Source: a virus
Direction: 5' to 3' (one strand)
DNA: 64,000 bases
IMG/VR virus record: IMGVR_UViG_3300036715_001783
Coordinates: 16,695-80,694 of that record
The notes beneath the pieces are model-generated. The model had not been told where the DNA came from, did not search any database, and was given only the letters and a program-made list of their open reading frames with translations. The translations under genes and the position numbers were made by a program. Below are positions 14,009 to 53,511 of this stretch, piece by piece. Each line of letters opens with the position of its first letter. Position 1 is the stretch's first letter.

Positions 14009-15157
14009 ATGATTGATAAACAAGCTAATTGGTTAGCAAAGGCTAAAAAAATCCACGGAGACCTATATGACTATTCTCTTGTTGTATATGTGTCTCCAGA
14101 TGTTCCAGTAATTATAAACTGCCCAATTCATGGACAGTTTCACAAAAGTCCAAATGGACATACCAACAAAAAGGCTGGGTGTCCTAAATGTGGATATCTA
14201 ATTAGAGCAGTCAACAATCGGGAAAAATATGGGGTAGATAATCCAGCACAGTTGGCTATTATACAACAAAAGAAAAAACAAACTGTGTTAGCTCGGTATG
14301 GTGTGGAATATGCATCACAAAATGAAAATATACAAAACAAAACAAAACAAACTAATTTGGCAAAATATGGACACCAGAATATTGCCCACGGTACAAAGAA
14401 AGAGAAGGTGACACATACCAATTTAGAAAAATATGGCGGGCACCCAAGAAAAAATAAAGATGTACAAGAAAAACAAAAAAGAACAAATCTGGAACGGTAT
14501 GGGTACGAAAATGCTGCCCAATCAAATATTATCCAAAATAAAATAAAACAAACTAATTTAGAGCGATACGGAGTAGAGTATGCTTCGCAGAACAACATTA
14601 TCAAAGAAAAAATAAAACAAACTAATTTAGAGCGATATGGAACACAATCTTACAGCCAACAACACTTGGTGGATATTCTCCCATTGCTTGAAGATTATGG
14701 TTGGTTATTTGAACAATATATTACCCAAAATAAGACAGCTACCCAAATAGCAAACGAATTAGGGAATGTTTATTATGGAACTATAATTTCGTACTTAATG
14801 TACTATGAAATAGAAATCCAACAATATTATTGGAGTTCATACAAATGTCGACTGTGGATTGCACAACAAGACGGTGCAATAATTGAAGAGTGGAAAATAC
14901 CAAATACAAGATTCAGAGCGGATGGATATTGTGAGGCAACAAATACCATTTATGAATTTCATGGGGACTATTGGCACGGAAATCCATCAATTTACCAACC
15001 AGACGAAATAAATGAAGTAGTTGGAAAATCCATGGGTGAGCTGTATCTGAAAACATTGGACCGAGAAAGCCTAATAAAATCATTAGGTTACAATCTAGTG
15101 GTTGTGTGGGAACATGATTTTGATACGTCCATAGAATTTATGGTGCAACAACAATAA
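14009..15157 (+). CDS. free-standing endonuclease with TNLE(R/K)YG repeats
   Basis: YDYS repeat, ~7 K.K.TNLERYG-type repeats, ADGYC...NTIYEFHGDYWHGNP. Confidence 0.75.
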   Translation: MIDKQANWLAKAKKIHGDLYDYSLVVYVSPDVPVIINCPIHGQFHKSPNGHTNKKAGCPKCGYLIRAVNNREKYGVDNPAQLAIIQQKKKQTVLARYGVEYASQNENIQNKTKQTNLAKYGHQNIAHGTKKEKVTHTNLEKYGGHPRKNKDVQEKQKRTNLERYGYENAAQSNIIQNKIKQTNLERYGVEYASQNNIIKEKIKQTNLERYGTQSYSQQHLVDILPLLEDYGWLFEQYITQNKTATQIANELGNVYYGTIISYLMYYEIEIQQYYWSSYKCRLWIAQQDGAIIEEWKIPNTRFRADGYCEATNTIYEFHGDYWHGNPSIYQPDEINEVVGKSMGELYLKTLDRESLIKSLGYNLVVVWEHDFDTSIEFMVQQQ

Positions 15158-17146: not shown

Positions 17147-18244
17147 ATGAGAAAAAGATGGTCTAATTTATTGGTTGATGAGTGGTTAATATCCCACAAG
17201 TTACCTATAACTAGATTATCATTATTTGAAAATGTCAGTACTCCATTACAATATAAATGTGAAGTTTGTGATAATATATGGAGTACTGCTTGGGTTAATA
17301 TATATTCCAGGGGCACTAGATGTCCCAAGTGTGCAATTGTACGAGTGGCACACTTACACACCAATTCGTTAGATTGGTGGAATGCTAAATTGGCATTGGT
17401 ACATATACTAAATATGGAGCCTATTATACCTGGAGATAATTCAGCTATAACATGGAAATGTGAAAATTGTGAATATACTTGGATAGCAACCAAAAGCTCC
17501 ATAATATCTCCAAATTTTGGAGGATGTAAGTGTTGTACTGGAAAATTGGTTAATAACCAAATTATAGATACCAAATTATCTGATAGAAATATTACTAGGT
17601 TGGATGATTTTATAGCAACAAATACTCCAATTAGTTGGAGTTGTAATGTGTGTGACCACAAGTGGAAGACATCTCCAACCAAAATTTTAAACGAAGGTAC
17701 AGGTTGCCCAAAATGTTCTAATAGGGTTAGGCATACAAATGAAGACATTGACCACAGGTGTGGGGCTATTGGAATACGACGAGTGGGAAATTATGTTAAT
17801 ACCCATACTAAAATAGAGTGGTGTTGCAAAAAGTGTAACAATACATGGCATGCAAAACCATCTAATATATTAAACCAACATACTGGATGTCCCCATTGTC
17901 GAACTCCATCATATTCAAAGAAAGCTATCCGGTGGTTAAATCAAACGATGCAGACTGATTGTTGTTTTATTCAACATGCTGAGAATATTGGGGAATACTT
18001 AGTACCAGATATTTTAGTAAAAGTAGATGGATACTGCAAAGAAACGAACACTATATACGAATTTCATGGGGATATATTTCATGGAAATCCAAATAAATTT
18101 ACAGCAGATGAAATGTGTAGTCCATTTCATAAATTAACAGCTGGTGAACTGTACAATAAAACTAAACACAAGGAGAGTAAAATAATGAAAGCGGGATATA
18201 AATTAGTAGTTATGTGGGAGAGTGAATATGACTCAAAAAAATAA
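17147..18244 (+). CDS. free-standing endonuclease with Zn-ribbon repeats
   Basis: Four W.C..C...W......GCP.C-type repeats; VDGYC...NTIYEFHGD.FHGNP. Confidence 0.75.
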   Translation: MRKRWSNLLVDEWLISHKLPITRLSLFENVSTPLQYKCEVCDNIWSTAWVNIYSRGTRCPKCAIVRVAHLHTNSLDWWNAKLALVHILNMEPIIPGDNSAITWKCENCEYTWIATKSSIISPNFGGCKCCTGKLVNNQIIDTKLSDRNITRLDDFIATNTPISWSCNVCDHKWKTSPTKILNEGTGCPKCSNRVRHTNEDIDHRCGAIGIRRVGNYVNTHTKIEWCCKKCNNTWHAKPSNILNQHTGCPHCRTPSYSKKAIRWLNQTMQTDCCFIQHAENIGEYLVPDILVKVDGYCKETNTIYEFHGDIFHGNPNKFTADEMCSPFHKLTAGELYNKTKHKESKIMKAGYKLVVMWESEYDSKK

Positions 18245-26909: not shown

Positions 26910-27349
26910 TTACCATTATCTCCCCCCACCATAATATACTAACCAACAGATACTTAATAATATTGTTGGTTGGTATTATCCACCCCCACCCCCACCAAGC
27001 ATACCCACCACTTTTTATATTATAGTACCAGTTCATGGACAGAACTGGTTTGGGTGTGGTGTATTTTATTAGCCATATAGACCCGGTTCAGGTTGGACTG
27101 GATAGGTCATGTCAATCGTTGCACCAGCTCAAATTGTATCCACTTTAAAAATTTTGAATTCCGTTTTCCAAAAATCAACCGATAAGTCAAATAGGGAACA
27201 TTTTTTGTCCCCATTGACTTTATACTTCATTCGTGTATAATATGATTTTTCCATCAACAAATATATGAGAGAATATAACCATGGAATCAGTTGAGATTTT
27301 ACCTATTGAAGATGTATTGACAGTGTACCAAACTTGTAAACAAGGATAA

Positions 27350-33739: not shown

Positions 33740-33927
33740 CTGAAACAATTGATAGTAAACATAAGCAAGGCGATATCGTGTATTTTGCAACTGATAGCAC
33801 CAGAATGGTAGTGTTATTAGTTAAAAACCCTCAAGGTGATGTGTGATATATGTGTGGTTGATTATACACCCGTAACCATTATCAAATGGCTGATTTACCT
33901 GAGTGTGCATTACGGAGTAGAGCATGA
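33736..33927 (+). pseudogene. YodC/DUF2158-like gene with two in-frame TGA codons
   Basis: ATGA-coupled at both ends; GDIV...RMVV...DV*YMCG*LY. Confidence 0.6.
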
Positions 33928-34193
33928 TTACTAAAACTGATGGAACAAATCCATACGAAACTGGTGATGTAGTTCAATTAAAGTCTGGTGGTCCAGCAAT
34001 GACAGTTATCTGGCCAAGTACTGTTCGACCTTCTTTATTGGAGTGTAATTGGTATGACATTAAAGGTAGGCTGCAACATGGCTCATTTCATTTTAAAATG
34101 TTAAGAATTGTTCCCAATCAACATCTCAGTGATCGATGTCCCGACCAAACTTCTGTTGTGTTACATGGATATGCGTATCCTGTATACAAATGA
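33924..34193 (+). CDS. YodC/DUF2158 family protein
   Basis: GDVVQLKSGGPAMTV, C.W. Confidence 0.8.
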   Translation: MITKTDGTNPYETGDVVQLKSGGPAMTVIWPSTVRPSLLECNWYDIKGRLQHGSFHFKMLRIVPNQHLSDRCPDQTSVVLHGYAYPVYK

Positions 34194-34198
34194 TTTGT

Positions 34199-34264
34199 CC
34201 CCCTATTGACATTTAATTTATTTCATGTATAATAGGGTTTTTAAATTAATCAAAAGGAGATAAT
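34199..34264 (+). repeat. 66-bp direct repeat, copy 1 (promoter + RBS of cas operon)
   Basis: 65/66 identical to 42363-42428; TTGACA-16-TATAAT, AAGGAG. Confidence 0.92.
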
Positions 34265-34265
34265 T

Positions 34266-35339
34266 GTGACAAAAGAAAAGGTTCCAAAGGTAAAAACCTG
34301 GGATGAGAAGTGGGGGAATTTAACAGATGATGCTATACTGGTGTCTGGTAATAATGCTGTTCACTATTCATTCAAATATATCAATTCAAACTTACAAGGT
34401 GGAATAAGATTATCTCCATCTGATGTGATATTAGATTCACCATATGTTTCTGGTATAACTGCTATGTGTTATCAACAACTACCTGTTGAATACTTTGCGT
34501 CATCTGTTATCACAATTTATAGTTATTTAGATTACCTTAATAACTCAAATCCAAGTCACCCACACGTTTCACTATTTACAACCAACCATACAGCTAGGTA
34601 TGAATATGGTACAACTGATTTATCTGGAACAAATTGTCGAATGAGACAAGTTTTGATACCTATTGGTGATGGGTACATAAGTGCTACACCAGTTAGTCCA
34701 GCAGGATTTAATTACCTAATGAAACAATTGAATGACCAAATTGAACCCAAAGAACGGTTAACTACTTATTTCATCACGTATGGTGGTGCAAATGGACGGA
34801 ATGTTGGGTGGGAAGCATGCAAAAAACATACCTATGCACTGTGTATGTCAGCTCCAACTGAGGATAGAAACATCCAACATGCGTATTCTATTTTTTACAA
34901 AGGTGTTGACTTGTCTTTGCCTAAACATATTGTACGTGAGTTATTTAATTTGCGACTACACCCCGACATGGTGGGATATACCAAAAAAGAAAATGATATA
35001 TTATCAAGTTTCATCAATGTGGTGTTGCACAAAGCTGTATTAGCTCGAGACATATTAATATCACAGAAGGATGCATTATATGATGCAGAACTATTTGAAA
35101 ATGTTACTGCACCACATAGTTATATTTTTGAATTACATGAGTCAGTAACAAACGATCTTATACAAAGTGGACTAATAAATCCAACTAAACGGAATAAGGA
35201 ATGGAAAGGGTTGTTGGCAACTAAGATTGTGAGCATGTTGGTGGATGAGAAGATCACTATTAGTGGGCAAACACGGTCATTAAATCTTGATGATGACCAA
35301 ATTGCTGAACTATCAGATAAGATGAGAAAAATGCTATGA
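34266..35339 (+). CDS. cas8f: type I-F Cas8f (Csy1), divergent
   Basis: RQVLIP..DGY...TP and YGGAN..NVG motifs; first gene of csy operon. Confidence 0.75.
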   Translation: MTKEKVPKVKTWDEKWGNLTDDAILVSGNNAVHYSFKYINSNLQGGIRLSPSDVILDSPYVSGITAMCYQQLPVEYFASSVITIYSYLDYLNNSNPSHPHVSLFTTNHTARYEYGTTDLSGTNCRMRQVLIPIGDGYISATPVSPAGFNYLMKQLNDQIEPKERLTTYFITYGGANGRNVGWEACKKHTYALCMSAPTEDRNIQHAYSIFYKGVDLSLPKHIVRELFNLRLHPDMVGYTKKENDILSSFINVVLHKAVLARDILISQKDALYDAELFENVTAPHSYIFELHESVTNDLIQSGLINPTKRNKEWKGLLATKIVSMLVDEKITISGQTRSLNLDDDQIAELSDKMRKML

Positions 35340-36139
35340 ACAATATATTAATAATTCCAAGAATTGAAGTGGTCAAATATAATGTATTGGCTTCTCAGTG
35401 GTTAATTTCACCAACCCCTGTACATGCCATAAACATGTTTGTCCACAATTTACAACTTAAAACTGGTATTGTATGCTCACGGGTATCCATTGTGCACCAT
35501 GATTTTTCATACAAGGCTGCTATTGGGAAATATAATGCACCCGCATTTGAAAAGCCAAAGGGAGCATCGTTTATTGATAAGTTAGATTATCCAAGTGACG
35601 GAAAGCCATTAATAGGGCCAAAATCACTATCATTTCAACCTAATTTTTATGGAGACATGACTATTAGTTTGATTATCGAAATTGACGATAGTGATAAGCA
35701 CACAGACGTGGAAGATTTTCTACATACAGCAAAAATTGCTGGTGGGGATATTATATCACACAAACCAATAAAGGTGTGTAATATCGCTGATGTATTTAAC
35801 CACATCAAAACTGGTTTCTTCGTCGAAGATTATAGCCACCTAATTGACCCTTCAAAAAATCAATTAGAACAATTGGTTACAACAATATCTAATAGCAAAG
35901 ATTGGATAAGTGCTGCCACATTGGGGTATGCTAAACTAACACAAGAGATTCACAAGCCAGGAGTACGAAATGGTGTTAAACATTGTTTCGTAGAGCCTTT
36001 AGTGGGGCTAATAAAATATATTCCAATTCACAACACCAAGGATGTTTCTGATATTCGATTTTGGAATTATGAGTGGAACACCCCATCAACTTTTATATGC
36101 AAACAAGAAGCCCTAATTTTAAATTCAGAGGAGAATTAA
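35336..36139 (+). CDS. cas5f: type I-F Cas5f (Csy2)
   Basis: IPRIEV...N, F.H.L, SL.IE, KIAGG.I, GY, H.FVEPL.G. Confidence 0.85.
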   Translation: MNNILIIPRIEVVKYNVLASQWLISPTPVHAINMFVHNLQLKTGIVCSRVSIVHHDFSYKAAIGKYNAPAFEKPKGASFIDKLDYPSDGKPLIGPKSLSFQPNFYGDMTISLIIEIDDSDKHTDVEDFLHTAKIAGGDIISHKPIKVCNIADVFNHIKTGFFVEDYSHLIDPSKNQLEQLVTTISNSKDWISAATLGYAKLTQEIHKPGVRNGVKHCFVEPLVGLIKYIPIHNTKDVSDIRFWNYEWNTPSTFICKQEALILNSEEN

Positions 36140-36140
36140 T

Positions 36141-37196
36141 ATGTCAAAACAAGTTTTTAAAAAGACCCCAAGTGTGTTAGCATTTCAACGGGCTGTATTA
36201 GCAACCGATGCTTTAATTTACAGTGTGTTGGATACCGGTATTGAGTTACCAGTACAAGTGACAGAAGTTGGAATCAGAGGTACTCAAAATATTAATGGTT
36301 CAATAAAAGAAGAAGTGCGAAATCTTCAATTGGTGGACGCTGCTAAAACTGCACCAAATACAAAGTTTGTTAAATTTGTATTTGGTATTAAGTTTATTGA
36401 TATAAGAAAATCATTACACTCCATCGCAAGTGGTAAAGAGGATAGCAAACAAGACGTAAGTGATTTCAAACAAAGTTTAGATGAATTTTTGAACAGAGTA
36501 ACTGGTCAAGAAGATGGAGAATTAGAAATCACTGGTAGTGATGGAATTTTAGATGTTGCAACTCGTTATGCCAGAAATATTGCAAATGCAAAGTGGTTGT
36601 GGCGTAATCGGTTATATGCTTCATCAATCACAACAACCGTTTCTGTTACTGATATCAAATCAAAACAGGCTCCTACAGTGTTTGTGTTTGATTCACTTGA
36701 GGTAGAATCTAAACATTTTGATGATTTTACTAAGGACGAAGAAGAACTTGGTAAACTAATCAACGATAGCTTATTAGGTACACGATTGTTAACCATCGAA
36801 GTATCAAGTGTTGTGGATTTTGGGGTTACAGGCGTGTTTGAAGTATTCCCATCCCAGTTATTCATTGATACTGATGCACTACCAAAAAATAAAAAAGGTA
36901 AATTTTTGTATGCAATCAAAAATAGCAATGATAGCATTGGCCAAGCAGCCATTAGAGATCAAAAAATAACCAATGCGTTGAGAACAATTGATACTTGGTA
37001 CAAAGAATTTGATCAAGTAAAAGATCCTATTCCAGTTGAACCAAATGGTGCAAGTTTAACCCATATGGTCTTTTTTAGAAAAGGTGCAGAATCGTCCTTT
37101 GATATTATTAAACGATTGAACACCATTGATGTTGATAGTGATGAAGGTAAGTTCTTTATATCCGCATTAATTCGTGGCGGCGTTTATTCATCATAA
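36141..37196 (+). CDS. cas7f: type I-F Cas7f (Csy3)
   Basis: SVLAFQR, RGT, N.Q.VD.A, RYA.NIAN..WLWRN, V.PSQ, QKI.NALRTIDTWY, LIRGGV. Confidence 0.95.
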   Translation: MSKQVFKKTPSVLAFQRAVLATDALIYSVLDTGIELPVQVTEVGIRGTQNINGSIKEEVRNLQLVDAAKTAPNTKFVKFVFGIKFIDIRKSLHSIASGKEDSKQDVSDFKQSLDEFLNRVTGQEDGELEITGSDGILDVATRYARNIANAKWLWRNRLYASSITTTVSVTDIKSKQAPTVFVFDSLEVESKHFDDFTKDEEELGKLINDSLLGTRLLTIEVSSVVDFGVTGVFEVFPSQLFIDTDALPKNKKGKFLYAIKNSNDSIGQAAIRDQKITNALRTIDTWYKEFDQVKDPIPVEPNGASLTHMVFFRKGAESSFDIIKRLNTIDVDSDEGKFFISALIRGGVYSS

Positions 37197-37207
37197 GGAA
37201 TAATAAC

Positions 37208-37780
37208 ATGACAATTTTGCATTATGTTGATTTAACACACTCCCGGTTCAATAATATTCCACAAGATAAGTCTAATATATTCAGACTATTGCATGGTATT
37301 TTTAAATCAGATAATCATTTATACAACGTATTCGGGTTAGCTTTTATTAAAAATGGAGTTAGAGTGTTTTGTGAAGATATTGGTGGGTTAGAAGATTTGT
37401 GGACAGAACTAAAAAATAACGATTCTGTAAAAGAATCATTTTATTTAGATAGACCAAATTCTGTTAATTTATCAAAATATATTGGCGGATGGATTTCGCA
37501 TTCAAGGTTCTCTATCCCAACAAGAAAACAAGATAGACACCCAACAGGTCCACTACGAAGAAAACGATTATTAGAAGCAGATGAAAATCCTAACATTTCA
37601 TATGTAAATGTTGGTTCAAAATCACAACAAACCCATTTCAGATATTATGTGAATCATCAATTCCATAATGATTGGAATTATGAGAGTGGTTGGGAAACTA
37701 ATGGTTATGGATTGTCATCATCTACAAGGTTGGTTGCTTTTCCATATTCAATTGGTAGAGAGTATCCGATTTATGAATGA
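37208..37780 (+). CDS. cas6f: type I-F Cas6f (Csy4)
   Basis: HYVD, LLH (catalytic His position), Arg-rich helix, S.S, YGLS. Confidence 0.82.
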   Translation: MTILHYVDLTHSRFNNIPQDKSNIFRLLHGIFKSDNHLYNVFGLAFIKNGVRVFCEDIGGLEDLWTELKNNDSVKESFYLDRPNSVNLSKYIGGWISHSRFSIPTRKQDRHPTGPLRRKRLLEADENPNISYVNVGSKSQQTHFRYYVNHQFHNDWNYESGWETNGYGLSSSTRLVAFPYSIGREYPIYE

Positions 37781-38318
37781 CCCAACATTCACAGGGATAA
37801 TGTTATCTAAGCATTAGTCATCGTGTAGATGATTTAGAAATCCCATTGATAAAGTTAGAGGACAAGTGAACAAATCTACTAATGTGAATGAATTGATGGG
37901 ACATGAAGGAGCATTTGCAAAGAAACTATTTTCACTGTTAGCAACTGGTTTCAACATAACTAATTTTTCAAGACAACGAAATGAACAAGATTCTACACAA
38001 TCTATTAATGTTATGATTAATAACTATTTAGATTATGGTAATTATTTGGCCTATGGATACGCTGCTGTAGTTCTAAATGGGTTGGGATTGAATCATGGGT
38101 TTCCGTTGTTGCACGGTACAACCAGAAGAGATGCTTTAATTTTTGATGTAGCTGATTTATTCAAAGATGGGCATATAATGCCCACTGCTTTCGAATATGC
38201 TACATCAGGAACAAAACAAACAGGACAACTATATAGACAATTAGTTACCAAACATTGCTACGATTCAGGGGTGTTAGATGACGCATTTTTATCCATGAAA
38301 TCCATCGTTTCTTTGTGA
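37773..38318 (+). pseudogene. cas1: cas1 (type I-F) with internal deletion and CRISPR repeat insert
   Basis: N-terminus MNDPTFTGIMLSK-C| then repeat; C-terminal half has EG, LDYGNYLAYG.AA, LHG.TRR.ALIFDVADL.KD. Confidence 0.85.
37813..37840 (+). CRISPR. orphan CRISPR repeat inside cas1
   Basis: Identical to array repeat ATTAGTCATCGTGTAGATGATTTAGAAA. Confidence 0.95.
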
Positions 38319-38333
38319 TTGTTACCTATGTTG

Positions 38334-38362
38334 TTGATTTTAGCAGTAAAATGTGCTAAACT
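38334..38362 (+). promoter_or_regulatory. array promoter in 49-bp leader
   Basis: TTGATT-17-TAAACT ending 5 bp before repeat 1. Confidence 0.55.
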
Positions 38363-38367
38363 ACAGC

Positions 38368-39355
38368 ATTAGTCATCGTGTAGATGATTTAGAAACGCAT
38401 GAATAACGCTACGCGGCATACCGTCATATTAGTCATCGTGTAGATGATTTAGAAATGACATGACAGTTGACATGACAGGTGATGTGAATTAGTCATCGTG
38501 TAGATGATTTAGAAATGATGATGTGATGTTGTCATACAGTCGTGATAATTAGTCATCGTGTAGATGATTTAGAAACAAACAAACCATGCCTGTTTTACCC
38601 ACTACTTATTAGTCATCGTGTAGATGATTTAGAAAAATTCGGTAGTGGCTCTTCAGCACAATCAATGATTAGTCATCGTGTAGATGATTTAGAAAACCAT
38701 ATGAAGGAGTGGTAGCACCATCGGGGCATTAGTCATCGTGTAGATGATTTAGAAACACTTGGAGGATATTTCTTAGATGGACACAAAATTAGTCATCGTG
38801 TAGATGATTTAGAAATAGACCCATTGTCTGTTCCACCAGTATGGTAAATTAGTCATCGTGTAGATGATTTAGAAAATCAAATAATAAAATATTTTTGATT
38901 GATAAATATTAGTCATCGTGTAGATGATTTAGAAAAATGGAGTAATAGTGAGTTTGACAGCTGATGTATTAGTCATCGTGTAGATGATTTAGAAATCAAA
39001 GTATCGCCATATAATCAGCTCCTTCTAATTAGTCATCGTGTAGATGATTTAGAAAATTATATGCAAAAGGTAGATTTACGTTAGTTGATTAGTCATCGTG
39101 TAGATGATTTAGAAAACATAAGTACACATATGGGTATTTGGTTAATAATTAGTCATCGTGTAGATGATTTAGAAAAATCAATTTTTGATATAGATGTGTA
39201 ATTTGAAATTAGTCATCGTGTAGATGATTTAGAAAAGCATACGGGTACAAAGGAGAAGTTGGATTCAATTAGTCATCGTGTAGATGATTTAGAAAACATG
39301 AATAATATACAATCATCGTCTGCAATAATTAGTCATCGTGTAGATGATTTAGAAA
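38368..39355 (+). CRISPR. type I-F CRISPR array, 17 repeats / 16 spacers
   Basis: 28-bp identical repeats (TCATC-GTGTA-GATGA hairpin, TTAGAAA end), 32-bp spacers, exact 60-bp period. Confidence 0.99.
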
Positions 39356-39379
39356 TGTTATAACAATCGGAGGGTAATA

Positions 39380-42358
39380 ATGTTTATAGTAATTGTATCA
39401 TCATGTATTAAGAAAGCAAAAGGTAGAACAAGAAGAGTATTAGATCAATATGCTACCCGGATAGAGTCGAATGCTTGGCAAACACCAATAACCAATATTG
39501 GATTACAACAACTGCACAAGGACCTAAAAAAGGTAGCAACTAGACACACATCAGTAACTTGTTTTGTTAATAGTGGGTACAAACAACTTCAAAAATTATG
39601 GACTGTTGGATCTGAAGCTAGCAAATACAACTTCCAACAAAGTGTGTTCAAGACTAAAGATGGTAGCTCATACCGGTCAACTGTCCCACCACACATCCGC
39701 AAAATTTCATTATTATCCAAAACCGCTGGATATGCTCATGATTTGGGCAAAGCCTCTGTTAAATTTCAAAATAAATTAATAGGGAAGGGTTCCATTGGAG
39801 ATGATATCCGACATGAGTGGATATCAATGAGAGTTCTCCAACAACTTAGAAAAGGAAAATCTTGGCAACAGGCATGGGACTCCCCTATAAACATTGAGTT
39901 TGATGGGTTTATGAAAAATGGGATGACTCAGATCAACGATGTGTTGGATTTTTGTGTGGCTACTCATCATGGACTATTCTGCAAGTATGACACAGAGACT
40001 CGGGAAATAAACAACGATGTAAATAATTTTCACGTAAGAAATGTAAATTTTAAATCATCAGATTTTCAAGTAGCTGGTAACATTGACCCTGATTTATTAT
40101 CTAAAATATCATCAGGTGAAAAAAGATTAAACAAAATGATTTCGGGGGCAACTCCTCTTGAATTGGAATACCTAGCTTGGATTTCCAGAGCTATGTTAAT
40201 TATGGCAGACCAAGTTGTTTCTGCAACACACAAAAACAAATACAAAAAAAGTGAGTTATACGCTAATACCGATAGAATACTAGGTCAAAAAAATGGTCCA
40301 CTTAATCAACCATTAGATTATCATTTAACTAATGTTGGTGAGTATGCATCTAATTATGCATACAAGTTTCTAACAGAAGTTGACTATCCAGCTTTATCCT
40401 CACAAACTATCAGCAATATTTTAACAAAATCAACAGATACCAGATTTGTTTGGCAGGATATTGCTTGTGAACATTTTATAGCTCAACCTGAATCAAATTT
40501 TTTAATTTTCAATATTGCAAATACAGGATGTGGGAAAACTCTAGCAAACCTAAAACTTGCAACAACTATTTCAAAAAATGAAGAACAAACAAGAATATCT
40601 ATCTGCCTCAATTTACGCTCTCTAACTCTACAAACTGGTAGAGAATATAACCGTATATTGAACCCACATGAAATAGACGCATTTGCTGTCCTTATAGGGG
40701 ACAAAACTACCCAACAACTATTTGATAATGACTGCGACGAAAATATTACCGAACCTAATATTGACATCGACGAAAACTTCCATATAAACAAGGAGTTACC
40801 TGAATGGTTGGAATTATTTTGTGATCTGTCATCAAATAGGAACACTATATTAGCGGCACCATTATTAGTGTCCACTGTAGATTATTTAATAAAAGCAGCT
40901 ACCCCAAGTGCACAAGGCCACCATGTTGCAAGTTTAATTAGAGCAGCCTCATCTGATTTAATATTAGATGAAGTTGACGGATATGAACCTAATCAATTGG
41001 TAATTATATGTAAATTGATTGAATTAGTTTCTTTTTTCGGTAGAAACGTAATATGCTCGACCGCTACTTTATCCACACCTGTTGCTGATTTAATATTGAT
41101 AGCGTTTAATAGAGGTAGAGAAGCTCGACAATTGTTGATTGATAGTAATCACACATCCCAATTTGGAATTGTGGATAATATAATTAAACCATCATCAATA
41201 TCATTTGGGGAAGATGTAAAAACTCATTACATGAACACAATAACAACCAAAAATAATTTAAACAATCAAGTAATAACAAAACTTGCAAAATTAACTCGTG
41301 TTCCAGAGGTAACAGAAGAATGTTGGTTTAATTCAATAGCAGAGGATTGTGTTGAACACCATAACAACCACCAGTGGATATACAAAGAAGCAACAGTTTC
41401 AATTGGATTGATACGAGTTGCTAATATTAAACATGGAATTGCCTTATCCAAATTCTTGACACAAACCCTATCAAACGTAAAGGTATGTTTTTATCACGCA
41501 AATGATTTCAAAATCGCTAGGTTTCACAAAGAACAAATATTAGATAGATTATTAACTAGAAAAAATCCCAACAAGGTGTATTCGGATTTGGATAGTGAAT
41601 TGGAGCCTGGAAAAGATATAATGTTTATAGTTGTAGCAACTCCTGTTGAAGAAATAGGAAGAGACCATGATTTTGATTGGGCTATTATTGAGCCATCAAG
41701 TTGCTCATCTATTATACAAACAGCTGGTCGAGTCAATCGACACCGTCTAATTAAGCAAACAGTTCCTAATATTAGTATATTGCAATACAATCATCGAAAT
41801 ATTAACAACCACAACAAATCAACAAAGATATCATTTGTGAGACCTGGATTGGAATGTCAATTAATTGGAGGAACATCTCACCCATCCAAAGATATAGAAC
41901 AATTATTGCCATGGGATAATGATGTATTGCAAATATCGTCAACGTTAAGATTTAATAGTGTGTTTGCAAGTTGTGATGATACAGCAATATCAAATACCAC
42001 TACTCACGCTATTAAAAGGTTTTTTTCTACTAAGCACACCCTATTATTAAAAAATAAATTTTATAATGACTATAGGTTGCGTGATAATGAACAACAAACT
42101 GAAATTATATTAGGCTGGGAAAATGGTGACACTTATAAATTTTGTGAGTATAAACAACTACCCGTTATAAGGACCAATAAAGTATTAGTTGATCCACCAT
42201 ATGGAAATACTTGGCTATCATTATCACACCTCGAGTTGAATAAAAAATGTAAGGCTAATGATGTTCCATACTATATTGGTAAATCATTATCCGTAAGAAA
42301 AGTTAAAGACGAAACAAGCCTTCACCACGATTGGTCATTTGGTTGGTGGATGGAATAA
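39380..42358 (+). CDS. cas3: type I-F Cas2-Cas3 fusion
   Basis: Cas2 N-terminus (KKA...TRRVLDQ.A.R....WQTPIT), HDLGK, RHE, THH, AD..VS, TGCGKT, DEVD, Q.AGRV.RH. Confidence 0.95.
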   Translation: MFIVIVSSCIKKAKGRTRRVLDQYATRIESNAWQTPITNIGLQQLHKDLKKVATRHTSVTCFVNSGYKQLQKLWTVGSEASKYNFQQSVFKTKDGSSYRSTVPPHIRKISLLSKTAGYAHDLGKASVKFQNKLIGKGSIGDDIRHEWISMRVLQQLRKGKSWQQAWDSPINIEFDGFMKNGMTQINDVLDFCVATHHGLFCKYDTETREINNDVNNFHVRNVNFKSSDFQVAGNIDPDLLSKISSGEKRLNKMISGATPLELEYLAWISRAMLIMADQVVSATHKNKYKKSELYANTDRILGQKNGPLNQPLDYHLTNVGEYASNYAYKFLTEVDYPALSSQTISNILTKSTDTRFVWQDIACEHFIAQPESNFLIFNIANTGCGKTLANLKLATTISKNEEQTRISICLNLRSLTLQTGREYNRILNPHEIDAFAVLIGDKTTQQLFDNDCDENITEPNIDIDENFHINKELPEWLELFCDLSSNRNTILAAPLLVSTVDYLIKAATPSAQGHHVASLIRAASSDLILDEVDGYEPNQLVIICKLIELVSFFGRNVICSTATLSTPVADLILIAFNRGREARQLLIDSNHTSQFGIVDNIIKPSSISFGEDVKTHYMNTITTKNNLNNQVITKLAKLTRVPEVTEECWFNSIAEDCVEHHNNHQWIYKEATVSIGLIRVANIKHGIALSKFLTQTLSNVKVCFYHANDFKIARFHKEQILDRLLTRKNPNKVYSDLDSELEPGKDIMFIVVATPVEEIGRDHDFDWAIIEPSSCSSIIQTAGRVNRHRLIKQTVPNISILQYNHRNINNHNKSTKISFVRPGLECQLIGGTSHPSKDIEQLLPWDNDVLQISSTLRFNSVFASCDDTAISNTTTHAIKRFFSTKHTLLLKNKFYNDYRLRDNEQQTEIILGWENGDTYKFCEYKQLPVIRTNKVLVDPPYGNTWLSLSHLELNKKCKANDVPYYIGKSLSVRKVKDETSLHHDWSFGWWME

Positions 42359-42362
42359 TATA

Positions 42363-42428
42363 CCCCCTATTGACATTTAATTTATTTCGTGTATAATAGG
42401 GTTTTTAAATTAATCAAAAGGAGATAAT
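42363..42428 (+). repeat. 66-bp direct repeat, copy 2
   Basis: One mismatch versus 34199-34264. Confidence 0.92.
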
Positions 42429-42431
42429 ATC

Positions 42432-42635
42432 ATGTGGAACAGAGTTTTAAGATTAGCAGCCTTTCTTGCACTATTGTGGTTAATCATCACAGTATTTTTA
42501 TGTGTTGGAATGTGGAATAATGGTTTTGCTCCTCATGATTATCTCGAAAATGAGCATGTCGATCGTTCATCTTTCATCAAACAAAAGAAAGCAGAACAAG
42601 ACCAACGATTCAGAGACAGAGGATGGATTAAATAA
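42432..42635 (+). CDS. small membrane protein
   Basis: Follows repeat promoter/RBS; one TM helix. Confidence 0.65.
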   Translation: MWNRVLRLAAFLALLWLIITVFLCVGMWNNGFAPHDYLENEHVDRSSFIKQKKAEQDQRFRDRGWIK

Positions 42636-42790
42636 TGAATTGAAATATTTTGTGGGCAATTGCTATAGTTGGGTGGTTAGCCATCACCTGTGATTTAATA
42701 TGGGAAGATGTGTTTCATTCATCCAACACCACTATCCAACTGCAGCAGAGAGCAATAAACTATGAGCCAAGATATATTTGGTCTAGTTGA
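42635..42790 (+). pseudogene. small membrane gene with in-frame TGA at codon 3
   Basis: TAATG coupling; MN*NILWAIAIVGWL. Confidence 0.4.
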
Positions 42791-43156
42791 AGATATTAAT
42801 AACCAACTAGGAACGAAATTAGATTCAGTTGGAAGTTATTATTTGACTTCGTATGCTCACAATGGATTACAATGTTATGCACTGAGAACTATTGTGTTTA
42901 ATGAACCGCAATAACGTTGACATTAATGCAAAATTAGATGATGGGGACTATACAGTTCCTGATGGAATGTTGTTAGTTGTTTGCATCCAGAGTTAATTGG
43001 TTTTGTAATTGGTAACACACCTGATTGGTGTGCTGATCACTTAGATCAAATTTGTGCTTTGATGCACAAACATAAAGTGATAAATAAGGTGTGTGATGTA
43101 TATAACATTACATATTGTAAGTATGATGTGTGGGCTCGATTAAGAGTGTATAGTTA

Positions 43157-49877: not shown

Positions 49878-52067
49878 ATGATACTCACTACAGCCACCAC
49901 TGTTGTTGAACGGTCTGGTACTACCCAAGAACATGCATTTACGATTAAAGCAACTGCATCTGCCTTCCAAATTCTTTCTTCTGGTTTATATAGCGATAAG
50001 ATTCTTGCAATTATTCGAGAATTGAGTGCCAATGCATATGATTCCCATGTTGCAGCTGGTAAAAAGCATGTACCAATTGAAGTTAAACTACCAAGCACGT
50101 TTGATGCTACCTTTTATGTTAAAGATTTTGGTATTGGATTAAGCCATGAGCAAGTTATCTCATTGTATTCCACCTACTTCGACTCCACAAAACAAGATAG
50201 TAACGACTTTATTGGTGCACTTGGTTTGGGAAGTAAAAGTCCTTTTAGTTATACCACTGCATTCAATGTTGAATCAAGGTATGATGGTATTCGCCATGTG
50301 TACTCCTGTTTTATTAATGAGAATCAGTTACCGTCTATCGTAAAGTTGAGTGAAGTTGCAATGGTTCCTGGTGAAGAAAATGGAATGACTATTTCGTTGT
50401 CAGCTAAACAGGATGATTTTTCTCGTTTTGAAACAGCTGCCAAGAAAACGTATATGTATTATGACCCATTACCTGAAATAGTTGGTCGCTCCACATTTGC
50501 TCCATATTCATTATCTCACACTGTTGTTGGTTCCAATTGGAAAATTAGACACAGTGACTATTATGCGTCAATGTATGGACCACATGTGGTTCAAGGATTT
50601 ATTACATATCCAATTGATAGATCAGCAATAACAGCACAAGGGTTGTCAGTAACCGCACAAGCACTGGTAGATGTTGCAATTGACTTTACAGTTCCAATTG
50701 GACAAGTTGAGGTAGCAGCTTCAAGAGAAGCACTATCATATAGCAAACAAACCACCAGTAACATTGTAAACATATTTGAAGTTGCTGCCACAGAAATTTA
50801 TGAGTCGTTCCAAGTGGCATTTGACAAATGTTCCTCTTTGTGGGAAGTTGGGTTGTTGTTTGAAGAACTAACCACCTCTCCATCGAAAGAGTTTAACGAG
50901 TTGTTTCTTAAATTTGACAAGTCCCAACCATTTACATGGAAGGGCCATATTGTACGAGATAAGATTAGAATAGACCTATCCAACATCACCTATACAAAAA
51001 TACAACAATTTAGTGTTATTAATGGTGGTTCGAGAATATCCATGAACCGAGACTGGTTGCCTGGCAGGGGTAGTGATAGTTTTGACATTCCAATCGGTAA
51101 AAATGTGCGTGTTATGGTTGATGATACATTTGTTGCAACTCGTGAAGTGTGTCGCAAATATATCAACTCTTTTTCGGTAGGTAAGATTACATTAATTGTA
51201 ATCAAACCTATTATTAAAAAACATAAAAACCAACTAGAACTTGACCGTATATTGGAAAGTATTGGTATAGAGGAGTATGTATTAGCATCTGATTGTGTTG
51301 ATAGTGTAGATGTTAAACCTCGTTCCAAACCAATCAAACGAGAAAAAACTGAACGGTTAGTTTGGACTCCAGTTGAAACCGTTGATCGATACTATCAATA
51401 TCCAACACATGGTAAGAATCATTGGGACCTTGATAGTATTGATATTAGTGCAGGTGGATATTATGTTGCTGTTAATCGATATACTCCATATTATAACAAC
51501 CAACCATATACAGTATTTAAAGACTTAATTAAGTACAGCACTCTTATTGGTTTAATTCCAAAAGGAACTCCTATTTACGGTTTACCAATAGCAGAAGTAG
51601 CTAAACTTGGCACTGGTTCTCAATGGATCAATGTTGTGGATATGTTAAAAACACAATTTGAGCAATTCTTGCTTGATACTAATGATGGTATCAATGCCTG
51701 TTACGAGGTTACAGATTTCAAAAGCAAAATAGGAGCTACCACTCATCATGTGTTGTGTAGCTATCATGATACAAAAAGTCCTTGGACCTTTGTTGGAGAT
51801 TTTAACACCTTTTGGGATAATGTGGTCCGAATTACTAACACTGCTCAATCAATAAATCGTGATCATGTGAATAAAGTGGCTAATGTGTTCCAGATTAAAT
51901 TGAACAGTTATACCAGTACGAATTCACTATATGAACAGTGGACCAAATTAAAAGATACCTATTCAATGTTGAGTTTTGTTGAAGATGGTGGGCTTGATAC
52001 AGAAGATGATGTACAAAAACTGGTAACTTATATTAATTTGGTAGATCTCCCATCTATTGACATTTAG
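49878..52067 (+). CDS. rIIA: rIIA lysis inhibition protein
   Basis: F.ILS..LYS.K..A.IREL..NA.DSH, DFG.G, STK..SN..IG.LGLGSKSPFSY, SRE.L. Confidence 0.92.
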   Translation: MILTTATTVVERSGTTQEHAFTIKATASAFQILSSGLYSDKILAIIRELSANAYDSHVAAGKKHVPIEVKLPSTFDATFYVKDFGIGLSHEQVISLYSTYFDSTKQDSNDFIGALGLGSKSPFSYTTAFNVESRYDGIRHVYSCFINENQLPSIVKLSEVAMVPGEENGMTISLSAKQDDFSRFETAAKKTYMYYDPLPEIVGRSTFAPYSLSHTVVGSNWKIRHSDYYASMYGPHVVQGFITYPIDRSAITAQGLSVTAQALVDVAIDFTVPIGQVEVAASREALSYSKQTTSNIVNIFEVAATEIYESFQVAFDKCSSLWEVGLLFEELTTSPSKEFNELFLKFDKSQPFTWKGHIVRDKIRIDLSNITYTKIQQFSVINGGSRISMNRDWLPGRGSDSFDIPIGKNVRVMVDDTFVATREVCRKYINSFSVGKITLIVIKPIIKKHKNQLELDRILESIGIEEYVLASDCVDSVDVKPRSKPIKREKTERLVWTPVETVDRYYQYPTHGKNHWDLDSIDISAGGYYVAVNRYTPYYNNQPYTVFKDLIKYSTLIGLIPKGTPIYGLPIAEVAKLGTGSQWINVVDMLKTQFEQFLLDTNDGINACYEVTDFKSKIGATTHHVLCSYHDTKSPWTFVGDFNTFWDNVVRITNTAQSINRDHVNKVANVFQIKLNSYTSTNSLYEQWTKLKDTYSMLSFVEDGGLDTEDDVQKLVTYINLVDLPSIDI

Positions 52068-52116
52068 ATATTATCAGTATATAATAACGACTTGAAATGA
52101 CAAAAAGGAGAAAAAT

Positions 52117-53511
52117 ATGACGGACAGTAATAACTCATTCATCATTACACCTTCCGCTTTATCGGTGGTAATTGATGGTAAACCGTATGCTGTAGACAAT
52201 CAGCATCCTAATTATGAACAAATTGTGAATGCCATCAAACGGGGTGTTTGGGGAATTGTTCCTAATTTGATTAACGTTGGAAAAACCTTCCAAACATTTG
52301 CTGAAAACACAGATATTTTGGTGGATATGGCAGGTGAATCTATTTGGTACAAGGGTGAACGAGTCCATAACACTATGGTTCAACATATTTTGAGTATGAT
52401 TAAGGAAGGGTTTGATGCTACACCAATGACCAATTTCTTACAAAATATGTATGATAATGTTTCCAAGAAAGCCATTAACGAGTTGTATTCGTTCTTGGAA
52501 TATGGCAAGATGCCCATCACAGGTGATGGCTATTTTTTAGCTTACAAACGTGTAAATGTTGACTATACCAGTTGTTTTGATGGAGTTACAGAAAACAAAA
52601 TTGGTACTGTTGTTGATATGCCACGAAACCAAGTTGATGATAGAAGTCATGTAACTTGTTCTCAAGGGCTTCATATCTGCTCATTTGAGTACCTGCGACA
52701 TTATCGTGGTGCAAGAGTTATTGTGGTAAAGGTAAATCCTGCTGATGTGGTTAGTATTCCAACTGATTACAATAATACAAAAGCTCGTGTGTGTCGATAT
52801 GAAGTGGTTGGAGAATTAACATTTGAAGAAGCTGGTTTAGATTCCCACACATTCGGAAAATCTGTTATCAATGAATTTGACCAAGGGGTAACAAAACCTT
52901 ATGTGGATGAACTTATTGAACCAGTAGATATTATTCAAGTGCCTCCATTTAAAACTGATGATGGCTCATTATTCCCATCTCATTTTGAACTGGATGCTCC
53001 AGAAGAATTACAAGAAGTGATACAATCTGGTGAGTTATCTGACTGGCTACAAGAACAGATAACATCTGGAGCTGCAACCATTCTGGCAATAGATACTGGT
53101 GATGCATTTGATAGTACTTTGTCAGCATTAACAGCCTCTAACGAAGCAGAAACAGGTCTTGTTGAATTCTTAAGATATTGTATTGCTGCTGATAAAGAAG
53201 GTTCTGTAATCATGCCTAGCGATGGTAGTGATGGTGGTACTGTAAAAATTAAGTGGCCAGAATTGGATACTTCTGCCACTGATATGTTAGCTACCACGTT
53301 TCACACAAGTGTATCTAATTATTACAAGGTTGGCTATACAAATGGATATCGACATGGTAGGGATAAATTACCAGTTGCTTGTGCGTCAACCACAGTATCT
53401 GCACCCGATTTGACGGTACAGGATATTATGGATTTGAATGCTGGCTACAGTATTGGTTATGTTGATGGCAAAACCACAAAAAACGTAAATTTGAAAAAAC
53501 AAGTGAAGTAA
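52117..53511 (+). CDS. rIIB: rIIB lysis inhibition protein
   Basis: EL..FL....PIT.DG.FLAYK, MPR..VDD.....CS.GLH, VNP.DVVSIP.DY...K.R.C.Y.V. Confidence 0.92.
   Translation: MTDSNNSFIITPSALSVVIDGKPYAVDNQHPNYEQIVNAIKRGVWGIVPNLINVGKTFQTFAENTDILVDMAGESIWYKGERVHNTMVQHILSMIKEGFDATPMTNFLQNMYDNVSKKAINELYSFLEYGKMPITGDGYFLAYKRVNVDYTSCFDGVTENKIGTVVDMPRNQVDDRSHVTCSQGLHICSFEYLRHYRGARVIVVKVNPADVVSIPTDYNNTKARVCRYEVVGELTFEEAGLDSHTFGKSVINEFDQGVTKPYVDELIEPVDIIQVPPFKTDDGSLFPSHFELDAPEELQEVIQSGELSDWLQEQITSGAATILAIDTGDAFDSTLSALTASNEAETGLVEFLRYCIAADKEGSVIMPSDGSDGGTVKIKWPELDTSATDMLATTFHTSVSNYYKVGYTNGYRHGRDKLPVACASTTVSAPDLTVQDIMDLNAGYSIGYVDGKTTKNVNLKKQVK

Follow-up and report, generated by a model that had tools for sequence, protein, structure and literature searches.

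The stretch of DNA analysed here (the window) comprises 64,000 nucleotides and corresponds to bases 16695-80694 of a linear 80,694-bp virus record in IMG/VR. Between positions 34199 and 42428 it carries a type I-F CRISPR-Cas locus (CRISPR, short palindromic repeats that are clustered and regularly interspaced), in which cas8f, cas5f, cas7f and cas6f are followed by a 5' stub of cas1, a solo CRISPR repeat, the 3' half of cas1, the CRISPR array and cas2/3, all on the + strand. Judged from their sequences, all five interference genes look intact: each is full length, matches its family and has kept its motifs, and, the lesion in cas1 aside, no frameshift or stop interrupts the cas coding sequence (about 7.4 kb).

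The first gene, cas8f (csy1; 34266..35339), encodes 357 amino acids (aa) from a GTG start and matches the PADLOC Cas8f profile at 8e-21. Its product is collinear, over residues 22-342 (hhalign probability 99.3), with the 392-aa Cas8f of a related locus, L011, and has one close homologue only (P0122, 43% identical); the PADLOC profile and the hhalign alignment to the related locus are the sole basis for its identification. The second, cas5f (csy2; 35336..36139; 267 aa), matches both Pfam Cas_Csy2 (3e-12) and PADLOC Cas5f (2.8e-27), and the third, cas7f (csy3; 36141..37196; 351 aa), matches TIGR02566 at 3e-66, above its cut-off. The nearest relatives of Cas7f are 57% (P0002 and P0003) and 48% (P0004, on a contig of 120.4 kb) identical to it, and its alignment in IMG/VR gave no locus above 40% identity. 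Cas6f, encoded by csy4 (37208..37780; 190 aa, with the catalytic His29 present), gave a weak family match as a single sequence, and phmmer searches of the PDB with Cas6f and with Cas8f found nothing. A profile built from 39 Cas6f homologues, in which His29 is invariant, matched the solved Csy4 structures in the PDB at 5.5e-16, and an AlphaFold2 (AF2) model of Cas6f with a mean predicted local distance difference test score (pLDDT) of 90.9 returned the Csy4 structures 2xli/2xlj as top Foldseek matches at a probability of 1.00. Both Cas8f and Cas6f have diverged beyond the reach of the Pfam models. The fifth gene, cas2/3 (39380..42358), encodes 992 aa matching TIGR02562 at 3e-186, above cut-off, and PADLOC Cas3f at 1.8e-201 over residues 1-990. 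A Pfam Cas3_I-F_Cas2 domain occupies residues 1-78, i.e. Cas2 is fused to Cas3, and the HD motif (HDLGK), Walker A (GCGKT), DEVD and the motif VI residues align to those of Pseudomonas aeruginosa Cas2/3 (8flj). As in subtype I-F1, cas8f, cas5f, cas7f and cas6f are four separate genes.

In the CRISPR array (38368..39355), 28-nt repeats (ATTAGTCATCGTGTAGATGATTTAGAAA), 17 in number and all identical, alternate with 16 spacers of 32 nt. Like Csy4 substrates, the repeat forms a stem that has a 5-nt loop and is followed by the tail UUUAGAAA (-6.6 kcal/mol, z -3.8); the repeat length, the Csy4 hairpin with its 8-nt 5' handle and the spacer length are all those of subtype I-F1. Only a leader remnant of 49 nt (38319..38367) separates cas1 from repeat 1, and it contains, in our own reading, a weak promoter-like site, TTGATT-17-TAAACT. 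Base composition changes along the array (38396-39327): the mean GC content is 44.5% in spacers 1-8 and 28.9% in spacers 9-16 (Mann-Whitney p=0.0075), with spacer 9 at 9%. This gradient points to a shift, with time, in the kind of target. Spacers 2 and 3 (38456-38547) have the words GATGTGA and TGTCAT in common, which are absent elsewhere in the contig, and spacer 2 carries TGACATGACAG twice in tandem; the two look as if they came from one iteron-like repetitive region of some target.

The adaptation gene cas1 is broken. Its 5' stub (37773..37812), which overlaps the cas6f stop, retains 13 codons (MNDPTFTGIMLSK) plus one base, and the 'GIMLSK' in it corresponds to the GIMLSKR motif of two full-length relatives (P0165 and P0166). 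It is followed by a solo CRISPR repeat (37813..37840), identical to those of the array, which brings in-frame stops; exactly one repeat thus stands in place of about 145 cas1 codons (residues about 15-160). The 3' half of the gene (37833..38318) continues in the same frame as the stub, has its first GTG at 37866 and is an open frame of 161 codons. It covers positions 167-305 of 307 in the Cas1f profile TIGR03637 (5.8e-40) and, by alignment to solved Cas1 structures, retains the catalytic Glu, His, Asp and Asp; the lesion was also read from an alignment to P0163-P0167. In the two full-length relatives cas1 encodes 307-308 aa, to which the 3' half is 52-54% identical, a divergence similar to that of Cas7f (57%), and these genes probably lie on the same contigs (7,979 and 140,814 bp) as the two nearest Cas7f relatives. 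Since relatives have a full cas1, the loss is specific to this phage; either it happened not long ago, or selection still acts on the remnant. A search of the available 80.7 kb, about 30% of the genome, gave no match to a second Cas1. The lack of a functional Cas1f integrase departs from subtype I-F1, and we read it as the loss of a module and not as evidence against the subtype.

By conjecture, the repeat-filled gap might have arisen through template switching, the left junction having AGC microhomology, or through an abnormal reaction of the integrase. Lying between two Cas6f sites, the 3' half could be cut free as an RNA of its own and be translated; a start that it might use is seen at 37857-37868 (AGAGGA, 3 nt, GTG). 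We also considered the solo repeat as an RNA anti-CRISPR (Racr, PMC10651486) and rejected this as the main reading, as the repeat does not differ from those of the phage itself and the search for a host array of this family found none. In a preliminary description of the window, the locus had been presented as a phage-borne type I-F system complete for interference, with a broken and non-functional cas1 and 17 undegenerated repeats. The genes and their coordinates, the phage context (rIIA/rIIB, endolysin and PhoH) and the state of each component bear this out, and with the solo repeat, which that text did not include, 18 repeats are present without a single change.

We then turn to the spacers, two of which match chromosomal genes of Methylococcales. 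Spacer 1 (38396..38427), which adjoins the leader, targets a CheB-CheR fusion gene with a 5'-CC protospacer adjacent motif (PAM). It matches at 30 of 32 positions in genome G001 (L107) and at 29 of 32 in a contig from the Joint Genome Institute (JGI; L026), with CC at both. The second of these targets was found only through the flank pattern of foreign contigs that match spacer 1 but are unlike the window on both sides. Such contigs, with CC, were present in three (X2, X3 and X4) of the four metagenomes that contain the phage; their upstream flank ends in ...GGCATAACC (...AACC), that is, in a 5'-CC PAM, and their opposite strand encodes a CheB-like peptide. The CheB-CheR target lies on a 33-kb contig in G001, while L026 is itself a contig of 223 kb, and the genomes closest to the latter are Methylococcales metagenome-assembled genomes (88-89% protein identity). 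Spacer 4 (38576..38607) targets a di-haem cytochrome c peroxidase gene (Pfam CCP_MauG, 8.5e-64) in the same Methylococcales genome G001, again with a 5'-CC PAM: in a whole-array BLAST against five genomes it matched at 29 of 32 positions in G001 (L112) and at 28 of 32 in a second genome (G002, L109), with the flank GTTCCC in both. By our own calculation the chance expectation of such matches is about 4e-6 across the five fully scored genomes. The CC is kept in every homologue of both protospacers with up to 5 mismatches, an observation that concerns two spacers and near matches only, and it lies 5' on the strand identical to the spacer, as in subtype I-F1. Both target genes are of the housekeeping type and conserved across many Methylococcales genomes. 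The GC content of the host target loci is 42-48%; the eight leader-proximal spacers are alike in this respect, the eight distal ones unlike.

The CC motif had been expected in the preliminary description, and CC was found at both matched protospacers. The search of the spacers against sequence databases that it proposed was productive for the presumed host, with two matches in G001, but not for mobile elements: the array gave only chance or repeat-level matches in 50,697 phage and 72,556 plasmid records. Spacers 1, 10 and 13 found nothing in IMG/VR, nor did spacer 1 in JGI metagenome contigs or a codon-degenerate spacer-1 pattern in GTDB genomes. No self-target was found in the 80.7-kb contig, where the best match has 9 mismatches. 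The spacer search of 401 Methylococcales genomes scored two candidates per genome, and more weak spacer matches may exist among them. The matches of spacers 1 and 4, with CC, in Methylococcales provide a host prediction for an otherwise orphan phage: on the sequence evidence, it very probably infects a Methylococcales methanotroph. Very probably, too, the spacers from the host chromosome were acquired with correct PAM selection while Cas1 still worked.

The order of the genes, csy1-4, cas1, array, cas2/3, had been described as unusual. This holds for one gene only. In two related loci, L011 and L013, cas1 directly follows csy1-4 and the array comes next, an arrangement that is therefore typical of this I-F branch; cas2/3 lies upstream in both (divergent in L011, co-directional in L013), and it is its position behind the array that is special here. 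The ATG of cas2/3 lies 24 nt past the last repeat, behind a GGAGG ribosome-binding site (RBS), where a promoter of its own would not fit.

The whole unit is bracketed by two 66-nt direct repeats. The left copy (34199..34264, + strand) contains a perfect TTGACA-16-TATAAT promoter within a stem (CCCTATT...AATAGGG; -10.4 kcal/mol for the hairpin), after which come a T-run and the RBS GGAG, and it serves cas8f. The right copy (42363..42428, + strand) has one mismatch (G at 42389) and serves the next gene, a 67-aa open reading frame (42432..42635, + strand) without a PHROG match, which would be the gene served by the promoter were the cassette absent. In a scan of 33800-43000, the promoters of the two 66-nt repeats were the only sigma-70 promoters to score 12/12, and no terminator-like site was present inside the cassette. 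We infer from this layout that a single long transcript is made and cut by Cas6f into mRNAs and CRISPR RNAs (crRNAs). The cassette may also be mobile by way of its 66-nt direct repeats, as one recombination could move or delete the block; a cassette-free relative of the phage was found neither in IMG/VR nor in GenBank. Elsewhere on the + strand, intergenic promoters at 27214, 33168, 52057 and 59949 share the signature CCC(A/T)..ATTGAC(A/T)TT with the 66-nt repeat, which looks like a phage early promoter family.

Brackets of this kind recall the PeSL (promoter early stem-loop) promoter-terminator cassettes through which T4-like phages exchange blocks (Arbiol et al. 2010, PMC2839356; Comeau et al. 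2014, PMC4122927). Likenesses are the composite early promoter in a stem-loop with a T-run, the direct repeats around a variable block and a phage with rIIA/rIIB. PeSLs of T4-like phages occur in many copies through hyperplastic regions, and relatives differ by having or lacking the block; here two near-identical copies only were found, the other promoters share just the CCC..ATTGAC start, and the phage need not be T4-like.

Together, we consider it probable that the locus is a working, interference-only I-F cassette of a lytic, probably jumbo, Methylococcales phage, which serves in part to shred host DNA and whose array has been frozen since the loss of cas1. According to this model, the early promoter in the left 66-nt repeat would transcribe the whole 8.1-kb unit, and Cas6f would cut the transcript at all 18 repeats, yielding csy mRNA, an RNA with the cas1 fragment, 16 crRNAs and cas2/3 mRNA. 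Cas8f, Cas5f, Cas7f and Cas6f would then load the crRNAs and locate CC-flanked targets, and Cas2/3 would degrade the target DNA processively. As to history, spacers would have been acquired with a functional Cas1, after which about 145 cas1 codons were replaced by a repeat. Because both known targets are ordinary genes of the host chromosome, part of the action would be the cutting or shredding of host DNA during infection. The phage might benefit through host shut-off, or by reaching anti-phage islands as in ICP1.

Several points weigh against this model. No perfect protospacer was found, 14 of the 16 spacers are without a match, and the true host strain is not among the genomes searched. The leader is very short. 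Lastly, a helical bundle of Cas8f that recruits Cas2/3 is only presumed (an AF2 model from a two-sequence alignment has a pLDDT of 34). In the Vibrio phage ICP1, whose Cas8f is short, the link between Cas2/3 and the Csy complex is made by the Cas1 protein (bioRxiv 10.1101/2024.03.09.584257); were the bundle missing here as well, interference might need a full Cas1 and the system would then be dead. We expect recruitment of Cas2/3 by Cas8f to be independent of Cas1 in this phage, because its Cas8f is twice the length of that of ICP1 and collinear with long Cas8f proteins.

A bolder version of the same idea, which we put forward tentatively, is that Cas2/3 is a routine programmable shredder of the host genome early in infection, started by leader-end guides that were copied from the host chromosome, that cas1 was hit by a repeat derived from the array, and that its loss was kept because a working integrase would load suicidal self-spacers while the lytic phage replicates. 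The repeat in cas1 would then be the trace of a mis-directed integrase or recombination activity, and the catalytic half of Cas1, freed by Cas6f, might still be made and modulate Cas2/3.

The preliminary description had instead proposed a weapon against competitors or satellites, a role that the identified targets do not support: they are chromosomal Methylococcales genes, and no phage, plasmid or satellite was among them. [quoted passage not shown] In ICP1, chromosomal spacers cluster near PLE and act via processive degradation of the chromosome by Cas2/3 (bioRxiv 10.1101/381962); here, 14 spacers are unmatched, the AT-rich distal eight are unlike the host loci, and the iteron-like words shared by spacers 2 and 3 point the same way. 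The blank searches of phage and plasmid records, and of IMG/VR with the three spacers tried, argue against this, as does the housekeeping type of both matched genes and their conservation across many Methylococcales genomes. As the genome is fragmented and each of the two targets is on a contig of its own, proximity to an island cannot be judged. We regard an anti-competitor or anti-satellite weapon as unlikely to be the main function; an anti-satellite role for the 14 unmatched spacers, or one exerted through ICP1-like chromosomal targeting beside an island, is possible, but no result obtained here suggests it.

That the cassette is a decaying relic, a recently captured and inactive passenger whose loss has begun with the cas1 lesion, is very improbable. 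The destruction of cas1 fits such a course, and the 66-nt direct repeats could delete the cassette in one recombination step. Against it, the cas coding sequence other than cas1 is open throughout with its catalytic motifs kept, none of the 18 repeats differs from the others, the 3' half of cas1 is itself still an open frame diverged from its relatives to a similar degree as Cas7f, and the same sequence occurs in four sequencing runs with almost no differences.

Even less plausible is an array that is not frozen, with spacers added in trans by a Cas1-Cas2/3 of the host or by a second one of the phage. Borrowing of host Cas1 had been suggested in the preliminary description; 401 Methylococcales genomes contained no array of this repeat family, their 19 matches all being single sites with 2 mismatches, and the 80.7 kb hold no second Cas1. 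In favour of adaptation in trans, CheckV puts the available part of the phage genome at only about 30%, and a related repeat family does exist, in L011 (GTTACTCATCGCCCAGATGATTTAGAAA).

An assembly chimera, with the cassette taken from another genome and joined via the shared 66-nt sequence, has next to no probability: the Logan contigs of all runs do break exactly at the 39-nt stretch common to both repeat copies (34235-34255 and 42399-42419) and so cannot bridge either border, but two wrong joins would be required, the two well-covered runs show the same contig depth within the cassette as beyond it (8.0/6.8/8.5/7.9 in X1; 5.9/6.9/6.4/7.3 in X2), cassette and flanks co-occur in four runs, their GC content is the same (34.1% against 35-36%), the promoter style (CCC..ATTGAC) matches other promoters of the contig, and the base that tells the two repeat copies apart is the proper one in each flank contig (A at 34225, G at 42389). 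Short joints (side of 20-22 nt) among the matching Logan contigs were treated as unrelated organisms.

Among known systems, that of ICP1 (Seed et al. 2013; GenBank KC152959) is similar in being a lytic phage's I-F system with cas2/3, csy1-4 and 28-nt repeats. Beyond the subtype the two are unrelated, as their Cas7f proteins are only 30.6% identical. ICP1 has the canonical order, cas1, cas2/3, csy1-4, and its cas1 is intact, whereas here cas1 is broken and the array lies inside the operon. The csy1 of ICP1 measures 540 nt (a 180-aa Csy1), against 357 aa for the Cas8f described here; by this length and its collinearity with the L011 protein, the latter is not of the short ICP1 type (about 180 aa) without a domain recruiting Cas2/3, and its own bundle is putative. 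The PAM of ICP1 is GA (bioRxiv 10.1101/381962), here it is CC; and its host is Vibrio, here probably a methanotroph. Chromosomal spacers of ICP1 occur both in the laboratory and in nature (McKitterick et al., bioRxiv 10.1101/381962), and an engineered Cas1-deficient ICP1, in which spacer acquisition is impossible, had the same plaquing phenotype (bioRxiv 10.1101/381962).

The CRISPR systems of huge phages almost all lack Cas1, Cas2 and Cas4 (Al-Shayeb et al. 2020, PMC7162821), and some of their spacers target bacteria of the same sample, taken as hosts (PMC7162821). The present system is alike in its large uncultured phage, its interference genes with catalytic residues, the lack of a working Cas1 (in about 30% of the genome) and the host-matching spacers, with the Cas2 domain persisting within Cas2/3. 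Huge-phage systems usually have no cas1 at all and a median of six repeats; here cas1 is half deleted, its gap is filled by a repeat, and 17 repeats make up the array. Bacterial I-F1 systems (P. aeruginosa PA14, Pectobacterium; PDB 8flj, 6ne0, 2xli) share the protein set, the Cas2-Cas3 fusion, 28-nt repeats with 32-nt spacers, the Csy4 hairpin with its 8-nt handle ending in AGAAA and the 5'-CC PAM. The present locus differs from them in the placing of cas1, array and cas2/3 after csy1-4, its truncated cas1, its diverged Cas8f and Cas6f and its location in a phage. L011 and L013, IMG/VR contigs of uncertain nature, have an intact cas1 and a Cas7f that is only about 40% identical. The repeat of L011 is nearly the same as here, with TCATCG...AGATGATTTAGAAA common to both. 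At 13210-16835 of L011, a contig with 37% GC, the array is long and its repeats drift along it (GTTACTCATCGCCC..., GTTGCTCATCGCAT..., ...TCATCGCGTAG...); neighbouring genes are PAAR-like and UmuC/DinB-like, and L011 may come from an island in a bacterium and not from a phage.

Phage CRISPR systems without adaptation, and phage spacers that target the host, are already published (PMC7162821; bioRxiv 10.1101/381962), and current ideas are not overturned by this phage I-F system. Its instructive details are the repeat-scarred cas1, cas2/3 behind the array and the PeSL-like brackets, to which the host prediction is added. If our reading is true, a different I-F branch was captured independently by a phage, one of environmentally important methane oxidisers. 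The locus would be a natural example of a phage array with identifiable guides against host core genes and the right PAM, of an adaptation gene caught in mid-loss with a single repeat as its scar, and of a whole CRISPR-Cas operon set between promoters, as a cassette that could be shifted or removed by a single recombination.

The phage setting of the cassette is real, as seen from PHROG matches along the contig. These include rIIA and rIIB (49878-53511), an endolysin (31045) and PhoH (32428), together with an RNA ligase, helicases, homing endonucleases and a MazG-like protein. The contig has a GC content of 34-38% along its whole length, with nearly all genes on the + strand. Since CheckV puts completeness of the record at about 30%, the whole phage genome should be well over 200 kb. 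The nearest GenBank phages show only about 30% protein identity to it, megablast of the locus against GenBank phages gave no match, and no close phage relative was found in IMG/VR via Cas7f, PhoH or the 66-nt motif. Phage-borne I-F systems had been called rare, and they are: Cas7f occurs in only 50 of 50,697 GenBank phage records, 48 from Vibrio (mostly ICP1) and 2 from Acinetobacter. The locus itself is present in four public runs (X1-X4), two from microbial mats and two from sediments, belonging to four studies that are perhaps one campaign, with Logan contigs matching at 99% or more; no RNA dataset is listed among the runs with the phage. At the start of the contig, outside the window (G000:C1:1-122), a 9-nt unit is repeated head to tail about 13 times, which surfaced as periodic 9-nt matches of spacer 6 and could be a terminal repeat or an artefact of the assembly end. 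Finally, two homing/HNH endonuclease genes are found among the early genes, at 14009-15157 and 17147-18244 (PHROG 3339 and 559).

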